Below, piece after piece: positions 7,283-45,124 of a DNA stretch of 47,427 nt. How positions within the stretch are numbered: the stretch's first letter is position 1; every line of letters starts with the position of its first letter. This DNA is from Candidatus Aenigmatarchaeota archaeon (GTDB lineage: Archaea > Aenigmatarchaeota > Aenigmatarchaeia > GW2011-AR5): contig JAZDNV010000009.1 of NCBI GenBank assembly GCA_043799385.1, positions 1 through 47,427 of the forward strand, read 5' to 3'. The position numbers were made by a program, and so were the translations under genes. The notes beneath the pieces were generated by a model, which was not told where the DNA came from, ran no database searches, and worked only from the letters and a program-made list of their open reading frames with translations.

Positions 7283-8638
7283 TCACAACCTCAGCATCTT
7301 TTCCCAGTACTCGCACACGGATTCTGTTTTCTTTGATGCAATGCCCGTGTACTCGCCCGGGGTTTCTATCGCACGCTTCTGATTTGCAGTAAACATATTG
7401 AAATATTTCATGATGTCACCATCTTCTTTTATCGATTCGATTAAAGGCCTGTTTTTCATCGTAAGCCTCCTTACAGCTTCGTGCGCATCAGGATGGCCGT
7501 GAACCGAGAGCAGTATGTAGAACGGCTCTGCGGTTATCATCTCGCGATTGATAGCAAAGTTTTTTGCCATGCTGCCCTTGTCTATCACAATGCTCTTGCA
7601 GGTTTTGTTCATCCTCTCGACTGATATAAGAAAACCGGCAAGCATCTCAACGACAAAGCGCGATGACGCGGAGTTGGTGAGGTCTCGTTGATGCTCAGAT
7701 AGCTGGTCCATGTAGAGCGTCATTATTCGCGGCACAAACGCTTTCCACATGCTCTTCACATTCTCGAAATCTATCGGATTTCTTTTGTGTGGCATTGTTG
7801 AGGATCCGACTTGATTGTCTGAGAAAGATTGCGCAACCTCGGATATTTCTGTCCGCTGCAGATGGCGCATATCGTCTGCAAGATTTGCGATTACACCGAA
7901 TGACGATATTACTGCATGAACGAAATCTAACATGAACTCCGGCTCTACTATCTGCGTTGAATGGGTCGCAGGTTTAAGGCGAAGCTCATTCAAAACTTCC
8001 AATTCATATTCTTCCGGATCTTCAAAAATAAGCGACGTCGCGTTGTAAGCGCCGACCGCGCCTGACATCTTGCCTCTCAGGCCTTCTGCAGAATTCTTTA
8101 TCTCCAGTATGCTGTTGCCTAATCGACTGACGTATTCAGAAAGCGCGAAACCGAACGTTATCGGCTCTGCATGCTGTCCGTGCGTTCTGCCGATTTGCAG
8201 CGTATTTTTTTCGCGCATTGCTATGTCGATTATCGTCTTTTCCAGCTCCAGTAGGCTTGGTATCATCACCTTTTCAGAAAACTCTTTGAAGCGCAGCGCC
8301 TCTGCTGTGTTTATTATGTCGAATGATGTCGCGCCCAGATGAACGAATGGCCGCGCACCTTCGCTGACCTTTTTTCTTATGCAATTGACAAGCGCGCGGA
8401 TGTCGTGACGTATTCTTTTTTCTTCCTCGTAGACATCGCCAGGACTCACGCTATCGCATGCGTCGCTGATTTCTTTCGCAATCTCTTTTGTGCAAATGCC
8501 TCTCTTTGCAAGCGCTGATGCTATTGCCGACTCAACCTTAAGCTGGTACCTTATTCTTGCGTTCTCGGAAAGAAACTGCTGCAGTTTTTCATCTGCATAC
8601 CTGTGGTCCAACGGGCTTATGTTGTCAAATACGTCCAT
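7283..8638 (-). CDS. purB: Adenylosuccinate lyase
   Basis: HLGATSFD, GRTHGQHA and GSSTMPHKRNP motifs. Confidence 0.95.
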   Translation of the reverse strand: MDVFDNISPLDHRYADEKLQQFLSENARIRYQLKVESAIASALAKRGICTKEIAKEISDACDSVSPGDVYEEEKRIRHDIRALVNCIRKKVSEGARPFVHLGATSFDIINTAEALRFKEFSEKVMIPSLLELEKTIIDIAMREKNTLQIGRTHGQHAEPITFGFALSEYVSRLGNSILEIKNSAEGLRGKMSGAVGAYNATSLIFEDPEEYELEVLNELRLKPATHSTQIVEPEFMLDFVHAVISSFGVIANLADDMRHLQRTEISEVAQSFSDNQVGSSTMPHKRNPIDFENVKSMWKAFVPRIMTLYMDQLSEHQRDLTNSASSRFVVEMLAGFLISVERMNKTCKSIVIDKGSMAKNFAINREMITAEPFYILLSVHGHPDAHEAVRRLTMKNRPLIESIKEDGDIMKYFNMFTANQKRAIETPGEYTGIASKKTESVCEYWEKMLRL

Positions 8639-20004: not shown

Positions 20005-20217
20005 TGGGCCCGACGGGATGTTCATGCAGCAAGCGTTGCTTACTCCATTTCGAACCCGCGACACCCGGCTAACCTTTTTCCGTCTTTGCGGAATTAAAAG
20101 GCCGATGCTCTTTCCTGTTTTCTCCTTCAGTCTTTCTTGATTAATCTTCGAATCCACATGGACGCCTTTGGCGTCATTTTGTTTACGAAGATTTATACCA
20201 GGCTGAGCTACAGGCCC
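20005..20217 (-). tRNA. tRNA-Lys(UUU) with three introns (D-loop 20112-20196, 37/38 20071-20094, 59/60 20019-20048)
   Basis: Spliced product GGGCCTGTAGCTCAGCCTGGT/AGAGCATCGGCCTTTTA/AGCCGGGTGTCGCGGGTTCGAA/TCCCGTCGGGCCCA folds as a 74-nt cloverleaf; each junction forms a strict or relaxed BHB. Confidence 0.9.
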
Positions 20218-21396: not shown

Positions 21397-24300
21397 CTAT
21401 TTCTTATTGTACTTGTAATAAAACTTCTTCACATGATGGTGGCCGTGATAATACAACCATCCTAATATGATTATCAAAACCATGACAGTTGCGATTATTC
21501 CAGGCCAGTAGTCGATCCATATCTGCGTCACTACCGTTGTTATCTCTGTTATCGTTTTTGGCATTTCTATTGGTTTTTCTGCTGGCTTGCAATCACTAGG
21601 GCAGCTATTGATGTTTTCGCTGCTCTCGCATTTACCGTCACCGCAGACCGGCCCTGACGGCTGAGTTGGCTGCTGCGGTTGCGCAGGCTTTTCAGCTGCA
21701 ACTACGAAAACGGACAACCCTGGTGAAGACGACTGATACTGTATATCTGTGTCGCTTTCGCCTATTTTTGATGTTATCATTTTCGTCCAGCCGCTGCTGT
21801 ACCTGTACAAATAAACATTATCGAACGTGAATCCATTCGTGTTCAGCCATGACTTTGTAACGTTAAATTTAATGCTGACCGAACTGATATCCGCATCGGT
21901 TATGTTCAGTGTTGTTATCTCTATCCATTGGTTGACTGTACCTGCTGGTGTCGTCACAGATGATGGTTGGCTTGATAGCCTTGTAACCGTCAGGGTAACA
22001 TCGGTCAGGTTCTTGTTAGACTTGAATTCTATTTCCTTGAACACAAGCGTCAGGTCGTTTAGCGTCATCTTGTTAGTGATGCCCGGAACCACGGTCATCC
22101 ATGTCTTCTTTGTTCCACCTGCTGCGCCTCCGCCGCCGCCGCCACCGCCACTACCGCCAGTCGTGGTTGTCGTGGTGTTTGATGTCGGCGAGTTTGTCCT
22201 CCATATGGAGAAGTCACAAGGTATCTTCCACTCGCAATAAGTCGCCGTGTTGTTCAGCAGCGTTGATTCTGAAGTTCGGTCTACGCAATTGCTGCCATCA
22301 TCCTGGCAGTGCCATACCTTTGTACATGTTCCATTATTTCCCTTTGGTATCTGAACGATGCAGTATTTAGGAACCAATTTCGTTGTCAGGTTGTCGAACA
22401 CAGAACTGTTCATGCCTACGTATCCTGCTCCGCCTGACTGGCCCTCTGTTACATTCAACAAGATTGAAAGCGAACCTATTAACGTTGCATTATCGAATAT
22501 TATCGAGCCGTTTGTTCCCTCGACTTTTACGTCTATAGTGGATGAAGTATAATTGAATTTCATTCCAGCATCTGCTCCGCAGCCGCCGCCCTGGTCAGCC
22601 CAGCCTGAGCCAGAATCGAACTTGACATTCGTTCCCTCGAATTTGACTGTGAATTCGCAGCTAGGACAATCTCTCCTGTTCCTGCTGTTTGATGTCGTGA
22701 AGTTCAGGCAAGCGGAATAACCGCAGTTGCCAGACGAATCGCATATCTTCAGTTTGTAATAATATGTTGTCGCGTTTGACAGGTTGTATCCAAGCCTTTG
22801 CGGATTGAATGCAAAATTATCTATCGGCCCGTCATGCCAGTTCTTGTAATTATCCCAACTATCATTGTTGAGCAAGCCTGAATCTAATAGAGTCTTGTTT
22901 ATCGTTCCGCAAACGCTGTCATTGTAATAGAATTGTATCGTGCCATTCGCTGGTTCGTCAGTATCATACTTTACGAATGCACCGTCAGGGTACGTCTCTA
23001 CTTTGTACCATTTCAGGCCAGGTGCAACTGTGTCATTGTATCCGGCTGCATTAACTCCTGTGCCCGCGCAGTTCATAGCAAACTTGCAATCAGGATCATT
23101 GCAATCAACCAAGCCATCACTATCCTCATCGTTACCGCTCGCAAAGCAATCCTCGTACATGATGAATCCCATCTGCTGGAATTTCATGCAGTCAGGGTCA
23201 TTTTCAGACGTGAAGCCGTCGTTGTCCATGTCAACTCCTGAAATCATGCAGTTCTCGAACTTGAAGTCTACTGTGCCCGGACTATAATATGAAGGTCCTA
23301 TTGCATCTATTGGATTGATTTCGCTTGCTGTCTTGCCGGCAGTTGATGCATACACCCGTATCTTCTTCTCTGGCTTGTATAGAGACTGGAACTTCTTCAA
23401 ATCGTCCTTGTCAACTGCTATCATTGCTCCGCCGATTTCCTCGCATACCAAATTCTGCCAGACGCTTAATTTTATATCAGTTATGACCCAGTCGCCGTCG
23501 TCGCATCTGTAGGACGTTTTCGTCTCTTTCAGCTCGCCGTCACTCCATTTGGCTATGTACTTCAGGAAGAATTCATATCCTACTGCAGATGCATTATTAT
23601 AAAGTGGGCAACCGCCGCTTTCGATTCCATCGGTGTCAAGGTACCAGTAGAACTTTGTCGTGTTCGTTCCGCTGCCAGAAATCGTCGTTCTCGTTGACTG
23701 GTTTGCCAGGACCTGCTGGCCCTTGCACAAAGCAGAGTCTTTCATGCTGAACACCATTGTTCCGAATGCAAAGTTATCGGGCATATCCCTGACTCCGAAA
23801 CCGCATATGTCCTGTGGCTGATCTATCGCCTCAGGGCACGTGTCCATTCCCAATGGTACTGGCTCTCCGCTCTCCATTCCCTTGAACATCTGCTTTGCCA
23901 TTTTCGGCTCGCAGAAACCAAGACGCCAGTTGCAGTAAGGCATGTTGCCAAGGCACGCATTTGAAGTTGAATAATTGAAACATCTCGGCTCGCACGTGCT
24001 CATGTTCGTGCCGGTAAATGCACCGCCACCGCCGACTGGACCGCCTTCTATCCCAAAACCGCCGCCGCCTGCGCCACCAAAGCCGAATTCGCTGCCTCCC
24101 ATCATTGTTTTTGTAACCCATGCACAGTTTCCTGCTGCGACGCCGCCTAGATCGCCATTACAGTCAGCCGGATTCGAATATATGTGGCACCTCATCAGGA
24201 TGAAGTCACAGTATCCGTTTCCAGACATGTCTGCAACCCATGTGCAGTTGCCTGTACACGAAGTCTGATTCTTTATATTCATGCAGTTGTTCATGAGGGT

Positions 24301-27300
24301 CTGATTCATATCGCAGGAACCGCCTGCTGACTTCCACTCACATGATTTTGCCAGGCCGCAATTATATGAGTCGCTGTACTGCCAGCAGTCCTCTGACTTC
24401 ATACCCAAAGACGATGCAGGATCGCAGAAGCCCGACACCCACACGCAATCAGTGGTGCTATTGCACGTTGAGAATATCTGGTAAGCGCTGCTGTCGCATT
24501 TGTCCGTGCACTCGCCCTTTGACGCGTTCAGCTGGTCAGGTATCCAGCTACAGTATGCAGTCGTATTCTGGCATAGTGATTTACCGTAACTGCTGCATTT
24601 TACAAGCTTGTATTCGCACGTGCCTGTGCCTGTTGACGGATTAAATGTCCACTTGCAGTCTGAATTGGCCTTGCATGAGCCTTCAGCTGTTAGTTTAAAG
24701 CATGTCTCAATCTTTGTATTATTAATCTCGCAATAACCGCCCTTAGGGTCGTTGTACCACTGGCACAATCCTGATTGGTTAGCGCAGCCAGACGGGTTGC
24801 CGTCCCACATGAAGCAGTTCTCGCCTTTTGTTCCGCACCACGTCTTGCCTGCCCATGAATCAATTATCCATAGGCAGTTCTCAGATGAGTGGTTGGCGCA
24901 TATAGTTTGTGTCGTATACTTCCAGCAATCAGAAACCATGCCTGCTCCGCAGAACGGATCAGAATAACAATCAACGTCTTCGCAATCGGTCTTGCCGTCA
25001 CCGTCGTCGTCAGTGCCGTCAAAGCATATCTCCTTGTCAAAGTTCTTTGGCTTGCATAATTTTATATTTTCATCCCATACGCAGCTTCCTTTTGTGCCTT
25101 TTCCGTAATTCACGCATGAAACCTCGTCATAACAGCGGAAGCAGTCTTCGCTACATGATTTCTCGCTCTGCGGATAGCACCAGCCGCCAGCAGTAGTCGT
25201 TCCAGCACTATCTTCTACCCACTTGCAGTTTGCAGACGATGACTCACACGTAGTTTTCGGTGACGCTTTCTTCTCGCATGCTTTGCAATCAGAGTTGCAA
25301 TCGCCTTTGCCGAACTTTATGTCATCCGGCATCTTGCAGTAACCAAAGCCGTTCGGTGCAGTGTTATTGGTGGTCCAGTTACAATATCCGAGTTTAGAGC
25401 CCTTGCACGCGCCTATTGCCTCTGTGGCATTGTTCCACATTGTTCCGTTCGGCCGGTATTCGCAAGCCCAGCAGGATGCGTCGCAGCTCTTGCCTGATGC
25501 ACCTGACTTTACCTCGCACCAGCCGTAAGGCACGGTCTTATTATTCTCGCAGTAGTATTCCTGTTTCCAGATGCCACCGGCGAATTCGCAGTCTTTCTTG
25601 CTCATTATCTTTCCTAAATCCTTTCCGCCTGTACCGAATTTTTCGTCTGACCTGAACGTGCAGCGATCATCAGATGTATCAACAGTTCCCATGCTGTCCC
25701 ATTTGCAAGGCATATACCACGGGTCTGCTGCTATCTGGTTGCATAACGTTTGATCAGTATAAGAATTGTAATCCTCGCAGTATGTTGCACCTTCTGGCGA
25801 TGGCTGCATGTTCTCGAAGCACTTTGCACTTACTGTATCTGCCTGGCATGTGTTGTTCTGCCATTTGCAGCACGATGCAAGGACAGGTATCTTGCTGCAT
25901 AACGTTGAGGATGAAATATTACCGCACTGTATGCCTGACTCAAGACCGACACACTGCGATGAATTGGCAGACCATCCGCAACCAGTGACATTCTGGCACT
26001 TTGTTTTCTGATTATCAAATATCCAGCAACCAGGGTTCATCTTGTCCTGCTCGAACTGGTTAATCCATGTGTTAGAAGGCTCTTCACATGTTCCGTTTAC
26101 GTTCCACCAGCAATATCCGCTGTTCTTGCATCCGGTTTCATTATTACTGTATTGAGAGCAGCCTGTCATAGACTCGCCGCAATAGCCGTTCTGCCAGCTG
26201 CAGGACAGGTTATATAATGCCGTTGCATTGCCACACGTAGATTGGTTGAACATCCAGCATCTTCGTTCCTCGCAGTAGCTGTTCGTGCTCCACGAACAGT
26301 TCTTGGCTGTACAAGAATCGCTGTCGTGATAAACCCAGCAGCCCTCGTTAGTGCACCATCCTAATCCGGTTGAATCCCATATGCAGCCAGCGTCTCTGCA
26401 TGCAGTGGTATTAGGGTATGCCCAGCAACCTACCTCACTGCAATAATTATATATTTCATTCCAGGTACAGTTCATTCTGTCAGTATTGTTCACGCATCCG
26501 GATTGGTTCCAGTAGTTCCAACAGCCCTTCATGTCGCACCAGCTGCTTCCAACATTCGTTACCCATCTGCACCTTGAGTTATTACCGCAGCCGGTTGAAT
26601 TCGTATAATTCCAGCAATTTACATTGCACCATCCGTATTCCTTCCATTCGCAGTTTAGTCCTGAACCCTGGCATTGGGTTTGATTATTAAAGAAGTTCCA
26701 GCAGCCGACCTCCTCGCACCAGCCTGATGACGTCGCGGTCGCCCAGCTGCAGCTCAGGTCAGCAGATGTTAAATTGCATGACGACTGGTTCGTATATTCC
26801 CAGCAACCTTTCTTTGTGCAGTATGGCGATTGCCACTTGCATGTGGCATTCATCGCTGTGCATCCGGTTTCATTGTAATCATAATTCCAGCAGCTGAGTG
26901 TTGTTGGCTCAGAACAATAGCCGCCGGATGATGACCAGTTGAATCCTGCACCAACACAGGTGGATTGGGTATTGTAATTCCACGGGCCGAGCTCTTCGCA
27001 CCACGTACTCTGCGTCCAGTTGCAGCCAGGCGAAGCTAGGCATGTATCATTGGTCCAGTAGTTCCAGCAGTTCGTGCCTGTTGAATTAAAGGAACCGCAC
27101 CATCCTGACGTCTTCCAGTTGCAGTTTAGAGTATCCGATGAATTTAGGCATGAGTTATTGTTATTATAATTCCAGCAGCCGACCTGGTAGCAATAATTAT
27201 AAGATTCCCATGTGCAGTTTATCGTACTGTGCAACGTAGAATTGTCGCAATTTGTCTGGTCGTAATAGTTCCAGCAGTTCGGCTCGTAGCAGTAATTAGA

Positions 27301-29028
27301 CTGATTGTTCCATAAACAATTCGGCACCGCAGTGCAGTTCGTCTGATTGTTGTAGTTCCAGCAGCCGTATTCCTGGCAATAGCTGTATGTTGAATCCCAT
27401 TTGCACATATCGGATAATGCATGCGCATCGCAATCTGTTTTTGTATTGTAGCTCCAGCAACCTTTCTCAGAGCACGAACCCCACGAATACCAGTTGCATG
27501 TATTGTCTGCGGCACATGTATTGTTTGTCGTGTAATCATAGCAACCAGTCTTCTGGCAGTAAGAATTTATTGTCCAGTTGCAGTTTAGTGTATCGTTCGT
27601 AGCCATACATCCGTCCTGAGAATAATAGTTCCAGCAGTATGGCTTATAACAATAACTTCCGCTCAATGACCACGTGCAACCATAAGTACTCGCAGCATCG
27701 CATGACGATTGATTGCTGTAACTCCAGCAACCCTTGTCAGAGCAGTAATTATATGTACCATCCCACGTACAGTCATAAGTATCAGTCGCATTCGAGCATG
27801 TTTCGTTTGTATTGAGACTCCAACACCCATAGTTTGTGCAATAACTGTATGTCGAGTTCCATCTGCAGTCATCAGATGCATGGGCGATGCACGTTGACTC
27901 ATTATAATAATTCGAGCAATATATTTGGTTGCAGTAGCCGTATGTCTTCCAGCTGCAGCCCAAAGATGAGGCAGCACTGCACGTAGCATTTGCCGCGTAA
28001 TTCCAGCAGCCCGGCTCTTCGCAATAACTCCACTGGGAGTTCCAACTGCAGACAGGATTCGCCGAAGCTGTGCATGTTGCGTTTGTATTTAAATTCCAGC
28101 AACTTGTCTTTGAGCAATAACTGCCGTCCCAAGTACATGTCAGATTCGGGTGAGCTGTTGTGTTTGAGCACGTTGCGTTTGTCATATAACTCCAGCAAGT
28201 GATTTCATTGCAATAACTATAATTGAAGTTCCACTCACAGTTCAAGGACGGATGCAGCGATGAATCTGTGCACGTTGCATTTGTATTGTAAAGCCAGCAG
28301 GATTTCTGCGTGCAGTACTCGCTACCAGACCATGAGCATTTGGGATTGCTCGAGCACGTATCCTTTGTGTATATGTTCCAGCATGTTGTCATGTTCTCTT
28401 TGCAATAACCACTACTGCCCTGCGAGCCCCATGCGCAGTTCGCGTTAAGATGCAACGTTGTGTCCGTGCAGTTTCCCTGGTCGTAATAGCTCCAGCAACC
28501 AACTTCAGAGCATGTGCCTGACGTCCATGTGCAGCTGGCGCCCTGACACCCAATCTGGTCATTGTAATTCCAGCAGCTCTTGCTCGAATCGCCCGAACAG
28601 TAGCCGTAGGACGAGTCCCACTTGCATGTCAGATTATCAGTCGTGCTTCCGCATGATGATGAATCCTTGTAGTCCCAGCAGTTGGGTTTAGTGCAATAAC
28701 CATAACCTGTCCAGTTGCAGTTGCCCGGGCAGGTTGTAGAATTGTAATTCCAGCAGGTTTTTTTATAACACCAGCCGCCACCCCACGTTGAGTTCTCCCA
28801 TGTGCAGTTCGCAACGTTGCAGCTCGACTCATTATAATAATTCCAGCAGCCCTTCTCCTCGCACCAACCGTATGATGGCTGCGCGTGCCACTGGCAACCG
28901 CCTACTGCAGAACATGTAACATTTGTACCAAAGTTCCAGCAACCTGTTACGGCAGCAAAGCCGATACTGAAGAGCAAGAAGAATGAGAAGAACAGAGCTA
29001 ATGCGAGTAGTTTTTTACTCAAATTCAT
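21397..29028 (-). CDS. Giant secreted, membrane-anchored Cys/Trp-repeat surface protein with PGF-pre-PGF-like domain
   Basis: Signal peptide; about 40 four-Cys repeats (CWxY..C..CxW..C); three DxDxDG..DxDC motifs; FN3-like segment (YYYKLKICDSSGN); Thr/Gly linker; SPGLSVFVV; CGDGKCE..EN..SCPSDC; C-terminal TM with basic tail. Confidence 0.9.
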   Translation of the reverse strand: MNLSKKLLALALFFSFFLLFSIGFAAVTGCWNFGTNVTCSAVGGCQWHAQPSYGWCEEKGCWNYYNESSCNVANCTWENSTWGGGWCYKKTCWNYNSTTCPGNCNWTGYGYCTKPNCWDYKDSSSCGSTTDNLTCKWDSSYGYCSGDSSKSCWNYNDQIGCQGASCTWTSGTCSEVGCWSYYDQGNCTDTTLHLNANCAWGSQGSSGYCKENMTTCWNIYTKDTCSSNPKCSWSGSEYCTQKSCWLYNTNATCTDSSLHPSLNCEWNFNYSYCNEITCWSYMTNATCSNTTAHPNLTCTWDGSYCSKTSCWNLNTNATCTASANPVCSWNSQWSYCEEPGCWNYAANATCSAASSLGCSWKTYGYCNQIYCSNYYNESTCIAHASDDCRWNSTYSYCTNYGCWSLNTNETCSNATDTYDCTWDGTYNYCSDKGCWSYSNQSSCDAASTYGCTWSLSGSYCYKPYCWNYYSQDGCMATNDTLNCNWTINSYCQKTGCYDYTTNNTCAADNTCNWYSWGSCSEKGCWSYNTKTDCDAHALSDMCKWDSTYSYCQEYGCWNYNNQTNCTAVPNCLWNNQSNYCYEPNCWNYYDQTNCDNSTLHSTINCTWESYNYCYQVGCWNYNNNNSCLNSSDTLNCNWKTSGWCGSFNSTGTNCWNYWTNDTCLASPGCNWTQSTWCEELGPWNYNTQSTCVGAGFNWSSSGGYCSEPTTLSCWNYDYNETGCTAMNATCKWQSPYCTKKGCWEYTNQSSCNLTSADLSCSWATATSSGWCEEVGCWNFFNNQTQCQGSGLNCEWKEYGWCNVNCWNYTNSTGCGNNSRCRWVTNVGSSWCDMKGCWNYWNQSGCVNNTDRMNCTWNEIYNYCSEVGCWAYPNTTACRDAGCIWDSTGLGWCTNEGCWVYHDSDSCTAKNCSWSTNSYCEERRCWMFNQSTCGNATALYNLSCSWQNGYCGESMTGCSQYSNNETGCKNSGYCWWNVNGTCEEPSNTWINQFEQDKMNPGCWIFDNQKTKCQNVTGCGWSANSSQCVGLESGIQCGNISSSTLCSKIPVLASCCKWQNNTCQADTVSAKCFENMQPSPEGATYCEDYNSYTDQTLCNQIAADPWYMPCKWDSMGTVDTSDDRCTFRSDEKFGTGGKDLGKIMSKKDCEFAGGIWKQEYYCENNKTVPYGWCEVKSGASGKSCDASCWACEYRPNGTMWNNATEAIGACKGSKLGYCNWTTNNTAPNGFGYCKMPDDIKFGKGDCNSDCKACEKKASPKTTCESSSANCKWVEDSAGTTTAGGWCYPQSEKSCSEDCFRCYDEVSCVNYGKGTKGSCVWDENIKLCKPKNFDKEICFDGTDDDGDGKTDCEDVDCYSDPFCGAGMVSDCWKYTTQTICANHSSENCLWIIDSWAGKTWCGTKGENCFMWDGNPSGCANQSGLCQWYNDPKGGYCEINNTKIETCFKLTAEGSCKANSDCKWTFNPSTGTGTCEYKLVKCSSYGKSLCQNTTAYCSWIPDQLNASKGECTDKCDSSAYQIFSTCNSTTDCVWVSGFCDPASSLGMKSEDCWQYSDSYNCGLAKSCEWKSAGGSCDMNQTLMNNCMNIKNQTSCTGNCTWVADMSGNGYCDFILMRCHIYSNPADCNGDLGGVAAGNCAWVTKTMMGGSEFGFGGAGGGGFGIEGGPVGGGGAFTGTNMSTCEPRCFNYSTSNACLGNMPYCNWRLGFCEPKMAKQMFKGMESGEPVPLGMDTCPEAIDQPQDICGFGVRDMPDNFAFGTMVFSMKDSALCKGQQVLANQSTRTTISGSGTNTTKFYWYLDTDGIESGGCPLYNNASAVGYEFFLKYIAKWSDGELKETKTSYRCDDGDWVITDIKLSVWQNLVCEEIGGAMIAVDKDDLKKFQSLYKPEKKIRVYASTAGKTASEINPIDAIGPSYYSPGTVDFKFENCMISGVDMDNDGFTSENDPDCMKFQQMGFIMYEDCFASGNDEDSDGLVDCNDPDCKFAMNCAGTGVNAAGYNDTVAPGLKWYKVETYPDGAFVKYDTDEPANGTIQFYYNDSVCGTINKTLLDSGLLNNDSWDNYKNWHDGPIDNFAFNPQRLGYNLSNATTYYYKLKICDSSGNCGYSACLNFTTSNSRNRRDCPSCEFTVKFEGTNVKFDSGSGWADQGGGCGADAGMKFNYTSSTIDVKVEGTNGSIIFDNATLIGSLSILLNVTEGQSGGAGYVGMNSSVFDNLTTKLVPKYCIVQIPKGNNGTCTKVWHCQDDGSNCVDRTSESTLLNNTATYCEWKIPCDFSIWRTNSPTSNTTTTTTGGSGGGGGGGGAAGGTKKTWMTVVPGITNKMTLNDLTLVFKEIEFKSNKNLTDVTLTVTRLSSQPSSVTTPAGTVNQWIEITTLNITDADISSVSIKFNVTKSWLNTNGFTFDNVYLYRYSSGWTKMITSKIGESDTDIQYQSSSPGLSVFVVAAEKPAQPQQPTQPSGPVCGDGKCESSENINSCPSDCKPAEKPIEMPKTITEITTVVTQIWIDYWPGIIATVMVLIIILGWLYYHGHHHVKKFYYKYNKK

Positions 29029-29221: not shown

Positions 29222-29427
29222 GCTGGCATGACAGAGCGGCCATGTGCTTGCCTGCAGTAAGCTTCTTTTTTGAAAAAGAAGCTTAATCAAGAAAATCTCT
29301 CAATTTCCAAAAGAAAAGGGAATGAGGGTAAAGGGAGAATACACACCGAAGCACCTTTGGTGCTTCAAGCAGTTTATTTCTCCTTTGCAGAGAGCAAGAT
29401 AGCCCGGTTCAACTCCGGGTGCCAGCT
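29222..29427 (+). tRNA. tRNA-Cys(GCA) with a 135-nt 37/38 intron (29258-29392)
   Basis: Exons GCTGGCATGACAGAGCGGCCATGTGCTTGCCTGCAG / AGCAAGATAGCCCGGTTCAACTCCGGGTGCCAGCT; BHB central helix CTGC/GCAG. Confidence 0.9.
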
Positions 29428-29429
29428 TT

Positions 29430-29522
29430 ATAATCTTCGTAAGCAAGATGACGTAAAACAGAATGACGCCAAAGGCGTCCGTGTGTTTGCATCTGTGTGT
29501 TTTCGAAGATTAATCAAGAAAA
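29430..29522 (+). repeat. Family B palindromic element with a doubly nested core, directly 3' of tRNA-Cys
   Basis: TAATCTTCG...ATGACGCCAAAGGCGTCC...CGAAGATTAATCAAGAAA, near-identical to the tRNA-Lys D-loop intron. Confidence 0.85.
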
Positions 29523-43023: not shown

Positions 43024-43392
43024 ATGTTGGATATTCTGTTGATTGCTTCGGTAATTCTGCTGTTAATTTTTATTCTTCTCTACAGCAATGCAAGGGAGAA
43101 GAATCAGGCGATGAAAATGCAGATAGATGAGTTAATCTCAAGAAAGCATAGCCTGAGCACAAAATATGGAAAAATGAGCGAGCAGTTCTTTCCTTTTCTG
43201 GAGTCATACCCGTACGACAGGGAAAAATTCAGATTCATCGGCAACCCGATAGATGGCGTGCAATTCGAAGAAGACAAAATAATCTTTGTTGAGTTCAAAA
43301 CAGCGAATTCGCAGCTAACGACACGGCAGAAAGAGATACGGGACATAGTCAAAAAAGGCCGAGTCGAGTTCGAGGAGTTCAGGATTGACTGA
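43024..43392 (+). CDS. Membrane-anchored Holliday-junction-resolvase-like PD-(D/E)XK endonuclease
   Basis: N-terminal TM; GKMSEQFFP, RFIGNPIDG, FVEFKT and QLTTRQ motifs. Confidence 0.85.
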   Translation: MLDILLIASVILLLIFILLYSNAREKNQAMKMQIDELISRKHSLSTKYGKMSEQFFPFLESYPYDREKFRFIGNPIDGVQFEEDKIIFVEFKTANSQLTTRQKEIRDIVKKGRVEFEEFRID

Positions 43393-45124
43393 GGCAAGCT
43401 TTTACAAAACCCAAGAACAAAGGCGCAGGATCGCCTAATCGCGATTTGAATTCTGGGTGAGCTTGCGTCGCTACAAAGAATCTGTGTTTTGGAATTTCTA
43501 TGAATTCCATCAGCTTTGTTCCATCGCTTCGCACATGATGACCTGGAAAAGAAAGACCGCACTTAGACAATTCGTCGATGAATTTGGGATTGACCTCATA
43601 GCGATGCCTATGTCGCTCGAGTATTATATCATCGTCTTGTGAGAGTGTGCCTAACCTGAATTTGTTTTTTTCGTCCTTTGATAGTTTTAAAATTCTTTTT
43701 GCATCTTCCCTCAACCTTCCGGTACTCTTGTATAAGTCAAGCACTTTTGAATTCTTCAGTATCGCAGCATATGCGCCTAATCTCATCGTGCCGCCGTACT
43801 GGCTCTTCTCTAAAAGCTCTTTCTGTATCGGCAATAAATCAATGACAGGGTAATTCGTTTTTTCATCTACTTCTGTCGTGTTAGCGTTATCCATTCCATG
43901 GCTTCGTGCATATTCGACGACCGCTAATTGCATGCCATAGCACAAACCAAGAAACGGGATATTATTCTCACGCGCGAATCTTATCGCTGCTATTTTTCCT
44001 TCAACGCCAGAAGAACCAAAACCTCCGGGTATTATTATGCCATCATAATTCTTTAATTTCTCTGTTCCGTTATTCTCGAAAGTTTTTGAATCAACCCAAC
44101 TGATATTGACTTTTGTATCCAACTCCGCGCCTGCGTGCTCAAGCGCCTGGTTTATTGATATGTAAGAATCCGTGAGCGTGTAATCGCCAATGTCAAGATA
44201 TTTTCCTACCATTGCGATATTTATGGTCTTGCTTGGATTTTCTATTCGTTCCACCAATCGCTCCCAGTTCCTCCAATCAGGCTTTGCTTTAGGACGTAAA
44301 TTGAATCGATTCAAAATTTTCTTTCCTAATTCCTCGTTTTCAAAATTCAAAGGAATCCGATAAATCGTTTTTACATCTGGCGCAGATATTATGTTTTCTG
44401 TTGGTATGTTCGCGTATATCTCTATCTTCTTTTTTCTTACTTCGTCCATCGGACGGATCGCGCGGCATAAAACGAAATCAGGAAAAATTCCGCTTTCGTT
44501 CAATGTCCTTATCGCCTGCTGCGTCGGCTTGGTCTTCATCTCTCCTATATTAGATGGTATCGGCAGATAGCTCACTAGAACGTTTGCAACATTCTCCTTG
44601 CCAAGCTCTATTTCCAGACTTTTCATTGCGAATAAGAAGGGAATATTCTCGTAGTCGCCAATCGTTCCGCCAATCTCCACTAGAACAAAATCATGATAAG
44701 ATGACGCACCTTGCGCGTCTTTGTATTCCGCTGCATCTTTTATCCTCCTCTTTATCTCGTTCGGTATGTGCGGTATGAATTGCACTGTCTGGCCTAAGAA
44801 CTCGCCTCTTCGCTCTTTGTCAATGACTTCTTTGTATACCTGTCCTGTGGTGATGTTATTCTTTTTTGATATATCAATGCTGAGGAACCGTTCATAGTTG
44901 CCCAAGTCCTGGTCGATTTCGCCGCCATCGTCAGTCACCCAGACCTCGCCGTGCTCGGTCGGCCGCAACGTCCCAGCGTCATAATTAATATAAGGGTCGA
45001 TTTTCACCGCAGTGACGGAAAAACCATACTCCTGTAGAATGCGCCCGATGGAAGCGGTTGTAACGCCTTTTCCGACTCCAGAAATAATCCCGCCTGTTAT
45101 TACAATGACTCTGAATTGTGACAC
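43379..45124 (-). CDS. pyrG: CTP synthase
   Basis: TGGIISGVGKG, KIDPYIN, HGEV, KTKPTQ, GLCYGMQ, ERHRHRYE and QAHPE motifs. Confidence 0.97.
   Translation of the reverse strand: MSQFRVIVITGGIISGVGKGVTTASIGRILQEYGFSVTAVKIDPYINYDAGTLRPTEHGEVWVTDDGGEIDQDLGNYERFLSIDISKKNNITTGQVYKEVIDKERRGEFLGQTVQFIPHIPNEIKRRIKDAAEYKDAQGASSYHDFVLVEIGGTIGDYENIPFLFAMKSLEIELGKENVANVLVSYLPIPSNIGEMKTKPTQQAIRTLNESGIFPDFVLCRAIRPMDEVRKKKIEIYANIPTENIISAPDVKTIYRIPLNFENEELGKKILNRFNLRPKAKPDWRNWERLVERIENPSKTINIAMVGKYLDIGDYTLTDSYISINQALEHAGAELDTKVNISWVDSKTFENNGTEKLKNYDGIIIPGGFGSSGVEGKIAAIRFARENNIPFLGLCYGMQLAVVEYARSHGMDNANTTEVDEKTNYPVIDLLPIQKELLEKSQYGGTMRLGAYAAILKNSKVLDLYKSTGRLREDAKRILKLSKDEKNKFRLGTLSQDDDIILERHRHRYEVNPKFIDELSKCGLSFPGHHVRSDGTKLMEFIEIPKHRFFVATQAHPEFKSRLGDPAPLFLGFVKACLSQS

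Follow-up and report, generated by a model that had tools for sequence, protein, structure and literature searches.

Palindromic repeats that stand in frame within genes are known from Rickettsia, as a familiar but rare curiosity. In archaea, palindromic repeats with coding potential are said to have been described in Methanocaldococcus jannaschii by Suyama et al. in 2005, reportedly fused into protein genes, and we know of no link of these repeats to tRNA introns. In cyanobacteria, Elhai et al. reportedly described in 2008 the SDR, dispersed repeats of 21-27 nt, some of which form hairpins and which nest in one another. Among the Thermoproteales, non-canonical tRNA introns have been spreading, with related sequences in different tRNA genes at unusual positions. 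The Rickettsia palindromic elements (RPEs), reportedly described by Ogata et al. in 2000, are, as far as the cited accounts present them, stem-loops of 105-150 bp with terminal inverted repeats, carried by an alphaproteobacterium and also reported in its RNA genes (PMC2229807, PMC10969869); REP and REPIN, by the account cited, are short imperfect palindromes mobilised by RAYT (Y1) transposases (PMC3116915). Here we analyse a hairpin within pyrG, the CTP synthase gene, on a 47,427-nucleotide stretch of a Candidatus Aenigmatarchaeota archaeon (contig JAZDNV010000009.1, assembly GCA_043799385.1; hereafter the window), and compare it with a short dispersed repeat that we call the GACGC repeat.

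Our data suggest, with a probability of about 0.78, that positions 44699-44728 of the window hold a slightly worn copy of a hairpin repeat dispersed among Aenigmatarchaeota, which would be translated within PyrG and kept where it does little harm. A previous examination of the letters of the window (the sequence-only reading) had proposed that an in-frame insertion in PyrG matches the core of a palindrome of tRNA introns. Our literature searches did not find a published account of a GACGC hairpin repeat.

The extra loop of CTP synthase

The gene, its insert and the core of the hairpin are located as follows.

43379..45124, minus strand: pyrG, CTP synthase, 581 codons (open reading frame (ORF), PDB relatives, Pfam and AlphaFold2 model)
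44699..44728, minus strand: ten-codon insert EYKDAQGASS, from the codon alignment, between helix 116-132 and strand 146-151
44703..44719, minus strand: hairpin core GACGCGC-AAG-GTGCGTC, a 7-bp stem with a triloop, pair 6 being G.T (G.U in RNA)

The product of the ORF is a CTP synthase with 3nva_A as its closest solved structure (E 7.6e-153) and PF06418 and PF00117 as the Pfam domains listed; around residue 134 it reads IKDAAEYKDAQGASSYHDFVLVEIGG. The insert is encoded by GAA TAC AAA GAC GCG CAA GGT GCG TCA TCT on the coding strand. When PyrG is aligned with 3nva and 1vco by HMMER, a gap of 7 residues opens at this loop, and in an alignment with 28 relatives from the same order (drawn from 29 of 30 loci, L028 being left out) the nine residues YKDAQGASS were absent in 21, an excess that bears out the earlier impression of a linker some 8-9 residues too long. 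The alignment of homologues also delimits the indel, whose position is exactly that of the hairpin repeat. The insert thus lies in frame at a loop of variable length: unrelated inserts of 2-8 residues occupy the same place in 7 of the 28 relatives, only G013 among them carries eight of the nine loop residues (YTE-QGASRYH), and the loop is short in 90 of the 120 closest database proteins, whose maximum identity to the query is 76% by BLAST. Since the insert is shared by a strain about 93% identical and by a 76%-identical relative, it is probably not recent in the query lineage.

In the AlphaFold2 model (mean pLDDT 91.9) the insert appears as a short beta-hairpin formed by strands 133-135 and 141-143, with a pLDDT of 87 over residues 131-140, and the following strand, 146-151, runs into the VEIGGT motif. 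From the topology of the alpha/beta fold in this model, the loop would lie at the strand end that faces away from VEIGGT and the active site; its surface exposure and its distance to the oligomer interface are estimated from that same topology, the model itself having given confidence and secondary structure. A translated insert at this position would be nearly neutral for the enzyme. With respect to 3nva and 1vco, PyrG has two more insertions, one of five residues at about 312-316 (IGDYT) and one of about 37 at about 462-498, the latter helical and within the glutaminase domain; both appear to be widely shared, as these stretches are occupied in the consensus of the 120 closest proteins.

The repeat with which this insert was compared has a core of 15-17 bases, GACGC(A/G)C-NNN-G(T/C)GCGTC or GACGCC-NNN-GGCGTC, in a unit of about 27-33 bases whose 5' flank is usually AAAC(A/G)A(A/C)(T/C)T. 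The PyrG core belongs to this family: its stem consists of six Watson-Crick pairs and one G.T, its arms fit the definition, and AAG is one of the three-base, mostly purine loops typical of the repeat (AAA, GAA, AAG). The family 17-mer GACGCACAAAGTGCGTC matches the PyrG coding strand with two mismatches, in sense and in frame 0, and both of these (the AAG loop and GACGCGC) occur in other copies; the AAG-loop variant GACGCACAAGGTGCGTC was also found in G001 (two copies) and G012 (one), and in G034 with one more mismatch. The sequence-only reading had aligned the plus strand with the core beside tRNA-Cys; the family match is real, and the better alignment is that of the coding strand.

A match this good could also be a chance palindrome, a loop rich in D, A, G and S whose likeness to the tRNA-side element means nothing. 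GAC/GTC and GCN/NGC codons are reverse complements, and for this reason a peptide of the DAxGA type may produce a hairpin by accident; the unrelated inserts at this same loop in a quarter of the relatives (7 of 28) agree with such an origin. The control by shuffling, which the sequence-only reading had proposed, speaks against it: when codons were shuffled 400 times within 807 ORFs (720 kb, counting within ORFs only), matches this good arose at a rate of 0.03 per genome in sense and 0.01 in antisense, or 0.03-0.04 per genome, and the observed match falls exactly on the indel. This explanation is very unlikely in our view, and further evidence on it is given below.

The repeat in tRNA genes, spacers and proteins

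Within the window the tRNA-side copies and their host genes are the following.

29222..29428, plus strand: tRNA-Cys(GCA), with a 135-nt intron (29259-29393) at the canonical 37/38 position
29430..29522, plus strand: full nested repeat copy, directly 3' of tRNA-Cys
29260..29295, plus strand: core-less short form at the 5' end of the tRNA-Cys intron, with outer stem AAGCTTC..GAAGCTT and tail AATCAAGAAAA
20005..20217, minus strand: tRNA-Lys(UUU), with three intervening sequences

ARAGORN and Rfam missed tRNA-Cys on the raw DNA, and ARAGORN called a 71-nt tRNA-Cys(gca) after 29259-29393 had been removed in silico; a candidate tRNA-Cys at 7500-7900, which rested on a short-motif match, was rejected. 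The strings that had been quoted for the element on the side of tRNA-Cys were found at 29444-29502. The outer stem of the full copy at this place is ATAATCTTCG/CGAAGATTAAT; the copy also has a second hairpin, its core at 29465-29479 (GACGCCAAAGGCGTC) and the tail AATCAAGAAAA, and its 17-mer ATGACGCCAAAGGCGTC recurs identically at 20161-20177 on the minus strand and at positions 1342-1358 of contig C30, in the gene for Elp3. By direct reading, the tail and the stem type of the core-less short form match those of full copies. The 13-base TTAATCAAGAAAA, which stands at 29510-29522 as well as where the tRNA-Cys intron has its 5' end, is the conserved tail of the outer element. A 2543-codon ORF (21397-29028, minus strand) lies directly upstream of the tRNA-Cys region.

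The three interruptions of tRNA-Lys(UUU) are located in the D-loop (about 85 nt, at about 20111-20195), the anticodon loop (24 nt) and the T-loop (about 29 nt), and the first of them contains a full repeat copy with its core at 20161-20175. Once the D-loop and T-loop inserts had been removed in silico, ARAGORN called tRNA-Lys(ttt) with a 24-nt anticodon-loop intron. This gene is missed by standard callers; when run with introns on the whole genome, ARAGORN reported only 15 tRNAs, 13 of them intron-bearing. Another full copy lies in a tRNA-Ser intron on contig C10. The description of the palindrome as one of tRNA introns therefore holds for tRNA-Lys and tRNA-Ser, and fails for the tRNA-Cys copy on which it had been based, which lies in the 3' trailer. 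A scan of the 786-kb genome for ATGACGC-N3-8-GCGTC gave 8 matches, four of which are the full element of about 70-90 bases (tRNA-Ser intron, tRNA-Lys D-loop intron, tRNA-Cys side and an intergenic site on contig C29), with the form ATAAAYTTCG...CAAAAT-GACGC(A)C-AAA-G(T)GCGTC-YRTGTG...CGAAGWTTAAYCAAGAAA.

Across 41 genomes, searched with at most two mismatches, ATGACGCCAAAGGCGTC had 85 matches and GACGCACAAAGTGCGTC 116, and the backwards controls had 6 and 5. The matches to the two strings, respectively, were 36 and 14 in G019, 3 and 26 in G012, 5 and 24 in G001 and 19 and 3 in G002, with none in many genomes. Among 70 distinct flanked copies, the core was often nested in other, differing stems, some of which start with GACGC. 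In the query genome, GACGC-N3-9-GCGTC occurs at 14 loci, compared with 2.7 +/- 1.7 (maximum 10) in 300 shuffles. Chance may thus account for about 2.7 of the 14, and the GACGC..GCGTC pairs in DnaG, ArgG and EF-2 (contig C21), which fall in conserved motifs, do look accidental. GACGC is, we assume, a type IIS recognition site; avoidance of it as a restriction site was rejected, its observed/expected ratio in the query genome being an unremarkable 0.93 (rank 186 of 1024 five-mers).

Read on the coding strand, the repeat has no stop codon and gives the peptide (K/T)-D-A-(K/Q/H)-G-(V/A)-S; many copies lie in long ORFs, in the frame that starts at GAC, as (Q/K)TDAKGV or TDAQSAS. One case in the query genome is Elp3 (contig C30), where the tRNA-side 17-mer stands exactly and in frame (PNDAKGVGVS), in a loop four residues longer than in the nearest relatives (alignment of 22 of 30 loci); such an identity is difficult to reconcile with a chance palindrome. 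Other copies of this genome lie in the C-terminal tails of uL29 and S8e and at the start of a DUF7266 protein. In relatives, in-frame copies were found inside a Pfam-confirmed domain of a P-type ATPase, AlaRS, TctA, Sua5/YrdC, Ham1 (two copies) and EF-2, and those of RFC, Rrp4 and uS13 are in an N-terminal extension of the open frame, perhaps upstream of the true start. In the Ham1-family gene of G019 (L106, contig C21) the two in-frame copies are 99 bases apart and read MDAEGVV and KDAEGVI. Together, these copies support the proposal that one and the same element occurs in tRNA introns and in protein loops, and extend it to the sides of genes and to conserved proteins that carry it in frame.

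This distribution could also be that of a functional nucleic-acid module, a binding or processing site in RNA or in single-stranded DNA that is possibly excised from some transcripts. All 9 ORF matches in the query genome are sense-oriented, and tRNA introns and gene ends harbour copies, as such a module would have it. Nevertheless, the hairpin element has no Rfam family at the gathering or E-value thresholds, and the genic inserts, being multiples of three, do not close the frame, a property for which excised inserts would have no need. The same frame-preserving lengths argue against splicing, and no bulge-helix-bulge motif was identified, by an inspection that did not include a formal motif search. 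Moreover, a copy number as uneven as 50 matches in G019 (36 + 14) and none in many other genomes is typical of selfish repeats. We regard a functional module as most unlikely, with a probability little above negligible.

Gain, loss and possible means of spread

A phylum-wide search matched PyrG in 269 of 371 genomes, and the DNA of three more inserts was obtained, from G206, G207 and G236. The G206 insert reads AAA CGA ACT GAC GCG CAC GGC GCG TCG and that of G207 CAG ATT GAC GCA CAT GGT GCG TCG. Both form perfect 7-bp stems (GACGCGC-ACG-GCGCGTC and GACGCAC-ATG-GTGCGTC, respectively) at the PyrG loop, and both are preceded there by the family 5' flank or nearly so (AAACGAACT in G206, CCACAGATT in G207). 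The stems differ by one compensated pair, which involves the third positions of Ala and Gly; in PyrG, then, the stem is kept at synonymous sites. Perfect copies with the family flank, at the same place in other PyrG genes, are not what a chance palindrome would leave. Congeners of these two genomes carry either SKKPDGSEY or no extra residues at this loop. A pattern scan of metagenomes, which demanded NTN codons after Asp and could not match, for example, DFT, returned 3 loci, each identical in sequence to the G206 or the G207 type. In G003, whose PyrG loop lacks the insert, a perfect GACGCACAAAGTGCGTC lies about 30 bases upstream of pyrG (L022, contig C2, 811855-811871).

Contigs of the strain about 93% identical, assembled from two groundwater runs and with a depth of only 2-3 at pyrG, span the insert without gaps and carry two changes in the stem: 44714 C>T, by which pair 6 is restored, and 44717 G>A, after which pair 3 is a G.U on the sense strand. 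Both PyrG variants thus have a wobble pair on the sense strand, an observation that would also suit the nucleic-acid module discussed above. Among the sequencing runs listed for the window none was of RNA; three DNA runs from one groundwater study cover small shares of it and show no joint at the insert. Elsewhere in the groundwater data there is one contig joint, at 44542-44628 (side 25).

Insert-like peptides, (T/K/I)DA(Q/H/R/E)GAS, were present at the loop in 12 of 120 PyrG proteins, in addition to the G013 type. When the insert state was mapped on a FastTree tree of these 120 proteins, built with the loop columns removed, at least 8 changes were needed, of which well-supported branches force at least 6, and sister proteins 85-88% identical differed by 8-10 residues at the insert. 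The insert has therefore been gained or lost repeatedly at the PyrG loop; in the query lineage itself only its presence was seen. The query and the G013-type PyrG were not grouped on this tree, whose deep branches are weak.

The recurrence of the peptide led us to consider whether the hairpin is only the shadow of a (T/K)DA(Q/H)GAS loop that is useful to PyrG, for example in regulation or assembly, and that is inherited or exchanged between lineages. G013, which keeps QGAS.YH without a stem, and the ordered beta-hairpin of the structural model agree with this proposal. However, the same bases are found in non-coding sites (tRNA introns and spacers) and in unrelated proteins, the insert comes and goes between close sisters, and synonymous stem positions covary in PyrG and, in EF-2, stay fixed where the background drifts. 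Selection on the peptide is thus an unlikely explanation, to which we give long odds.

The case of EF-2 resembles that of PyrG. Of 70 genomes searched, 60 gave a match, and 5 of these (G012, G205, G213, G005 and G222) carry a 27-nt insert with GACGCC-NNN-GGCGTC; they belong to three genera, each with insert-free congeners, so at this loop too the insert has been gained or lost repeatedly. The loops of the five hairpins vary (AAA, AAA, AGT, TCC and TCC), and the four codons of the arms are identical in 5 of 5 genomes. Elsewhere in EF-2, a single codon is used throughout in only 3/23, 3/26, 2/32 and 0/27 of the columns with an invariant D, A, G and V, respectively. This contrast between identical arm codons and synonymous sites that have drifted implies that the stem is held or renewed at the nucleotide level. 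Stems that are kept while the loops vary would equally be expected of a nucleic-acid module. The EF-2 of G005 (L073) contains, besides the hairpin insert, an intein with a LAGLIDADG domain (Pfam Intein_splicing and LAGLIDADG_3).

If the insert is a worn copy of a dispersed repeat, as we propose, the repeat would persist where extra bases do little harm: in tRNA introns, with which it would be spliced out, in the spacers where genes end and, provided that its length is divisible by three, also in the surface loops and tails of proteins. The PyrG copy would then be translated and lengthen the loop before the strand that leads into VEIGGT. The sequence-only reading had spoken of an element that colonises tRNA introns and protein loops; a shared element stands, and its mobility is suggested by the patchy distribution. 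We infer a selfish spread, by some enzyme or by recombination between copies. The repeat might even be a self-propagating module of about 30 bases, directed to particular sites or kept in them by a mechanism that has yet to be described in archaea. We offer this idea tentatively, as one that is more probably wrong than right, because the same PyrG and EF-2 loops are filled in separate genera, copies are nested in the loops of other hairpins and stems are held synonymously. These features would fit an enzyme that inserts the module into hairpin loops while they are briefly single-stranded, or one that brings about gene conversion among its copies. If true, it would be among the smallest protein-coding repeats known, and in DPANN archaea the growth of protein loops would be tied to the spread of sequences of tRNA introns.

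A mobilising enzyme was sought among the Y1/RAYT transposases. PF01797 was above its cut-off in 11 of 41 genomes, and the hairpin was not found in the 6 Y1 transposase loci that were fetched. This candidate was rejected, as no link appeared and PF01797 had no match in the copy-rich G001, G002 and G012. The ORFs near two clusters of hairpins (G001 contig C19 and G019 contig C7) are, by eye, ribosomal-protein genes and small genes of unknown function, and no transposase was evident there by the same inspection, made without a Pfam scan. Of the marks of a MITE (terminal inverted repeats, a target-site duplication and a parent insertion sequence), comparisons of filled and empty PyrG and EF-2 genes revealed neither a duplication nor a parent element, at a divergence too high to fix the ends of the insert.

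Several observations weigh against the insert being a worn copy of a mobile repeat. PF01797 was not found in the query genome (G000) either, nor in G001, G002 or G012, the genomes being incomplete (65-97%), and no target-site duplication, terminal repeats or mobilising gene was identified for the repeat. Furthermore, the use of an identical loop time and again is unlike the prediction of random transposition; recombination between lineages, strong selective filtering or targeting may therefore be involved. In the query, the 5' flank GAATACAAA is not the canonical one. In G236 the right arm of the PyrG insert has decayed, and G013 keeps eight of the nine residues without the left arm, which implies that the peptide can persist without the hairpin. 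The plus-strand hairpin of the sequence-only reading folds as claimed, but no better than shuffled DNA (44697-44727, -6.1 kcal/mol, z -1.58, 14 of 200 shuffles doing as well), and in the sense RNA the 7-bp stem with its AAG loop reaches -10.4 kcal/mol (z -0.84, 35 of 200 doing as well). As neither strand folds better than its shuffles, fold energy was discarded as evidence. Given the peptide D-A-Q-G-A-S and a TCN serine, five of the seven stem pairs are already set, so only two pairs probe the nucleic-acid level; these are Watson-Crick or wobble in 8 of 8 cases over the four intact PyrG sequences, which are few and partly related. The shallow strain contigs call for the same caution.

The unexceptional fold energy and the five pairs that follow from the peptide also favour the chance palindrome. 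Even so, this explanation is already strongly disfavoured by the codon-shuffle expectation, by the perfect, flanked copies in other PyrG genes and by the exact 17-mer within Elp3.

Comparison with known systems

The repeats of M. jannaschii and the GACGC repeat are both archaeal, have open frames and lie in protein genes; their hosts belong to different phyla. With the SDR, the GACGC repeat has in common a very small size and nesting, whereas the SDR are bacterial and are not known to us to recur in frame in essential genes. In the Thermoproteales the intron itself is the unit; in contrast, the hairpin described here would be a passenger in introns, and is found equally in spacers and coding loops.

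As described in the account cited, REP and REPIN resemble the GACGC repeat in their similar size, nested copies and a copy number that is strongly uneven among relatives (PMC3116915). They differ from it in being extragenic and in lying beside a RAYT gene, as far as that account goes (PMC3116915); copies of the GACGC repeat are also found inside genes, and no Y1 link was found for them in the genomes and loci searched.

Our results indicate that the evolution of protein loops by in-frame palindromes would be wider than thought, as it would involve a far smaller repeat in DPANN archaea, one that is present alike in essential genes (CTP synthase, EF-2, AlaRS and Elp3) and in tRNA introns. The repeat could serve as a marker for tracing the movement of sequences among introns, spacers and genes in uncultured genomes. 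It also represents a warning for annotation, since lineage-specific loops and tRNA genes missed by callers may stem from the same repeat.

There is also a likeness with the RPEs, which, in the descriptions available to us, are also palindromic, lie between genes and in frame in conserved protein genes, and are translated as extra peptides. In-frame insertion of the RPE type is seen for the GACGC repeat in PyrG, Elp3, EF-2, AlaRS, the ATPase, Sua5, Ham1 and TctA. Nevertheless, with its 27-33 bases, approximately, and its DPANN archaeal hosts, the GACGC repeat falls outside the RPEs in size and in host and, unlike the RPEs as those descriptions present them, it turns up at one and the same loop in different genera and is present in tRNA introns.

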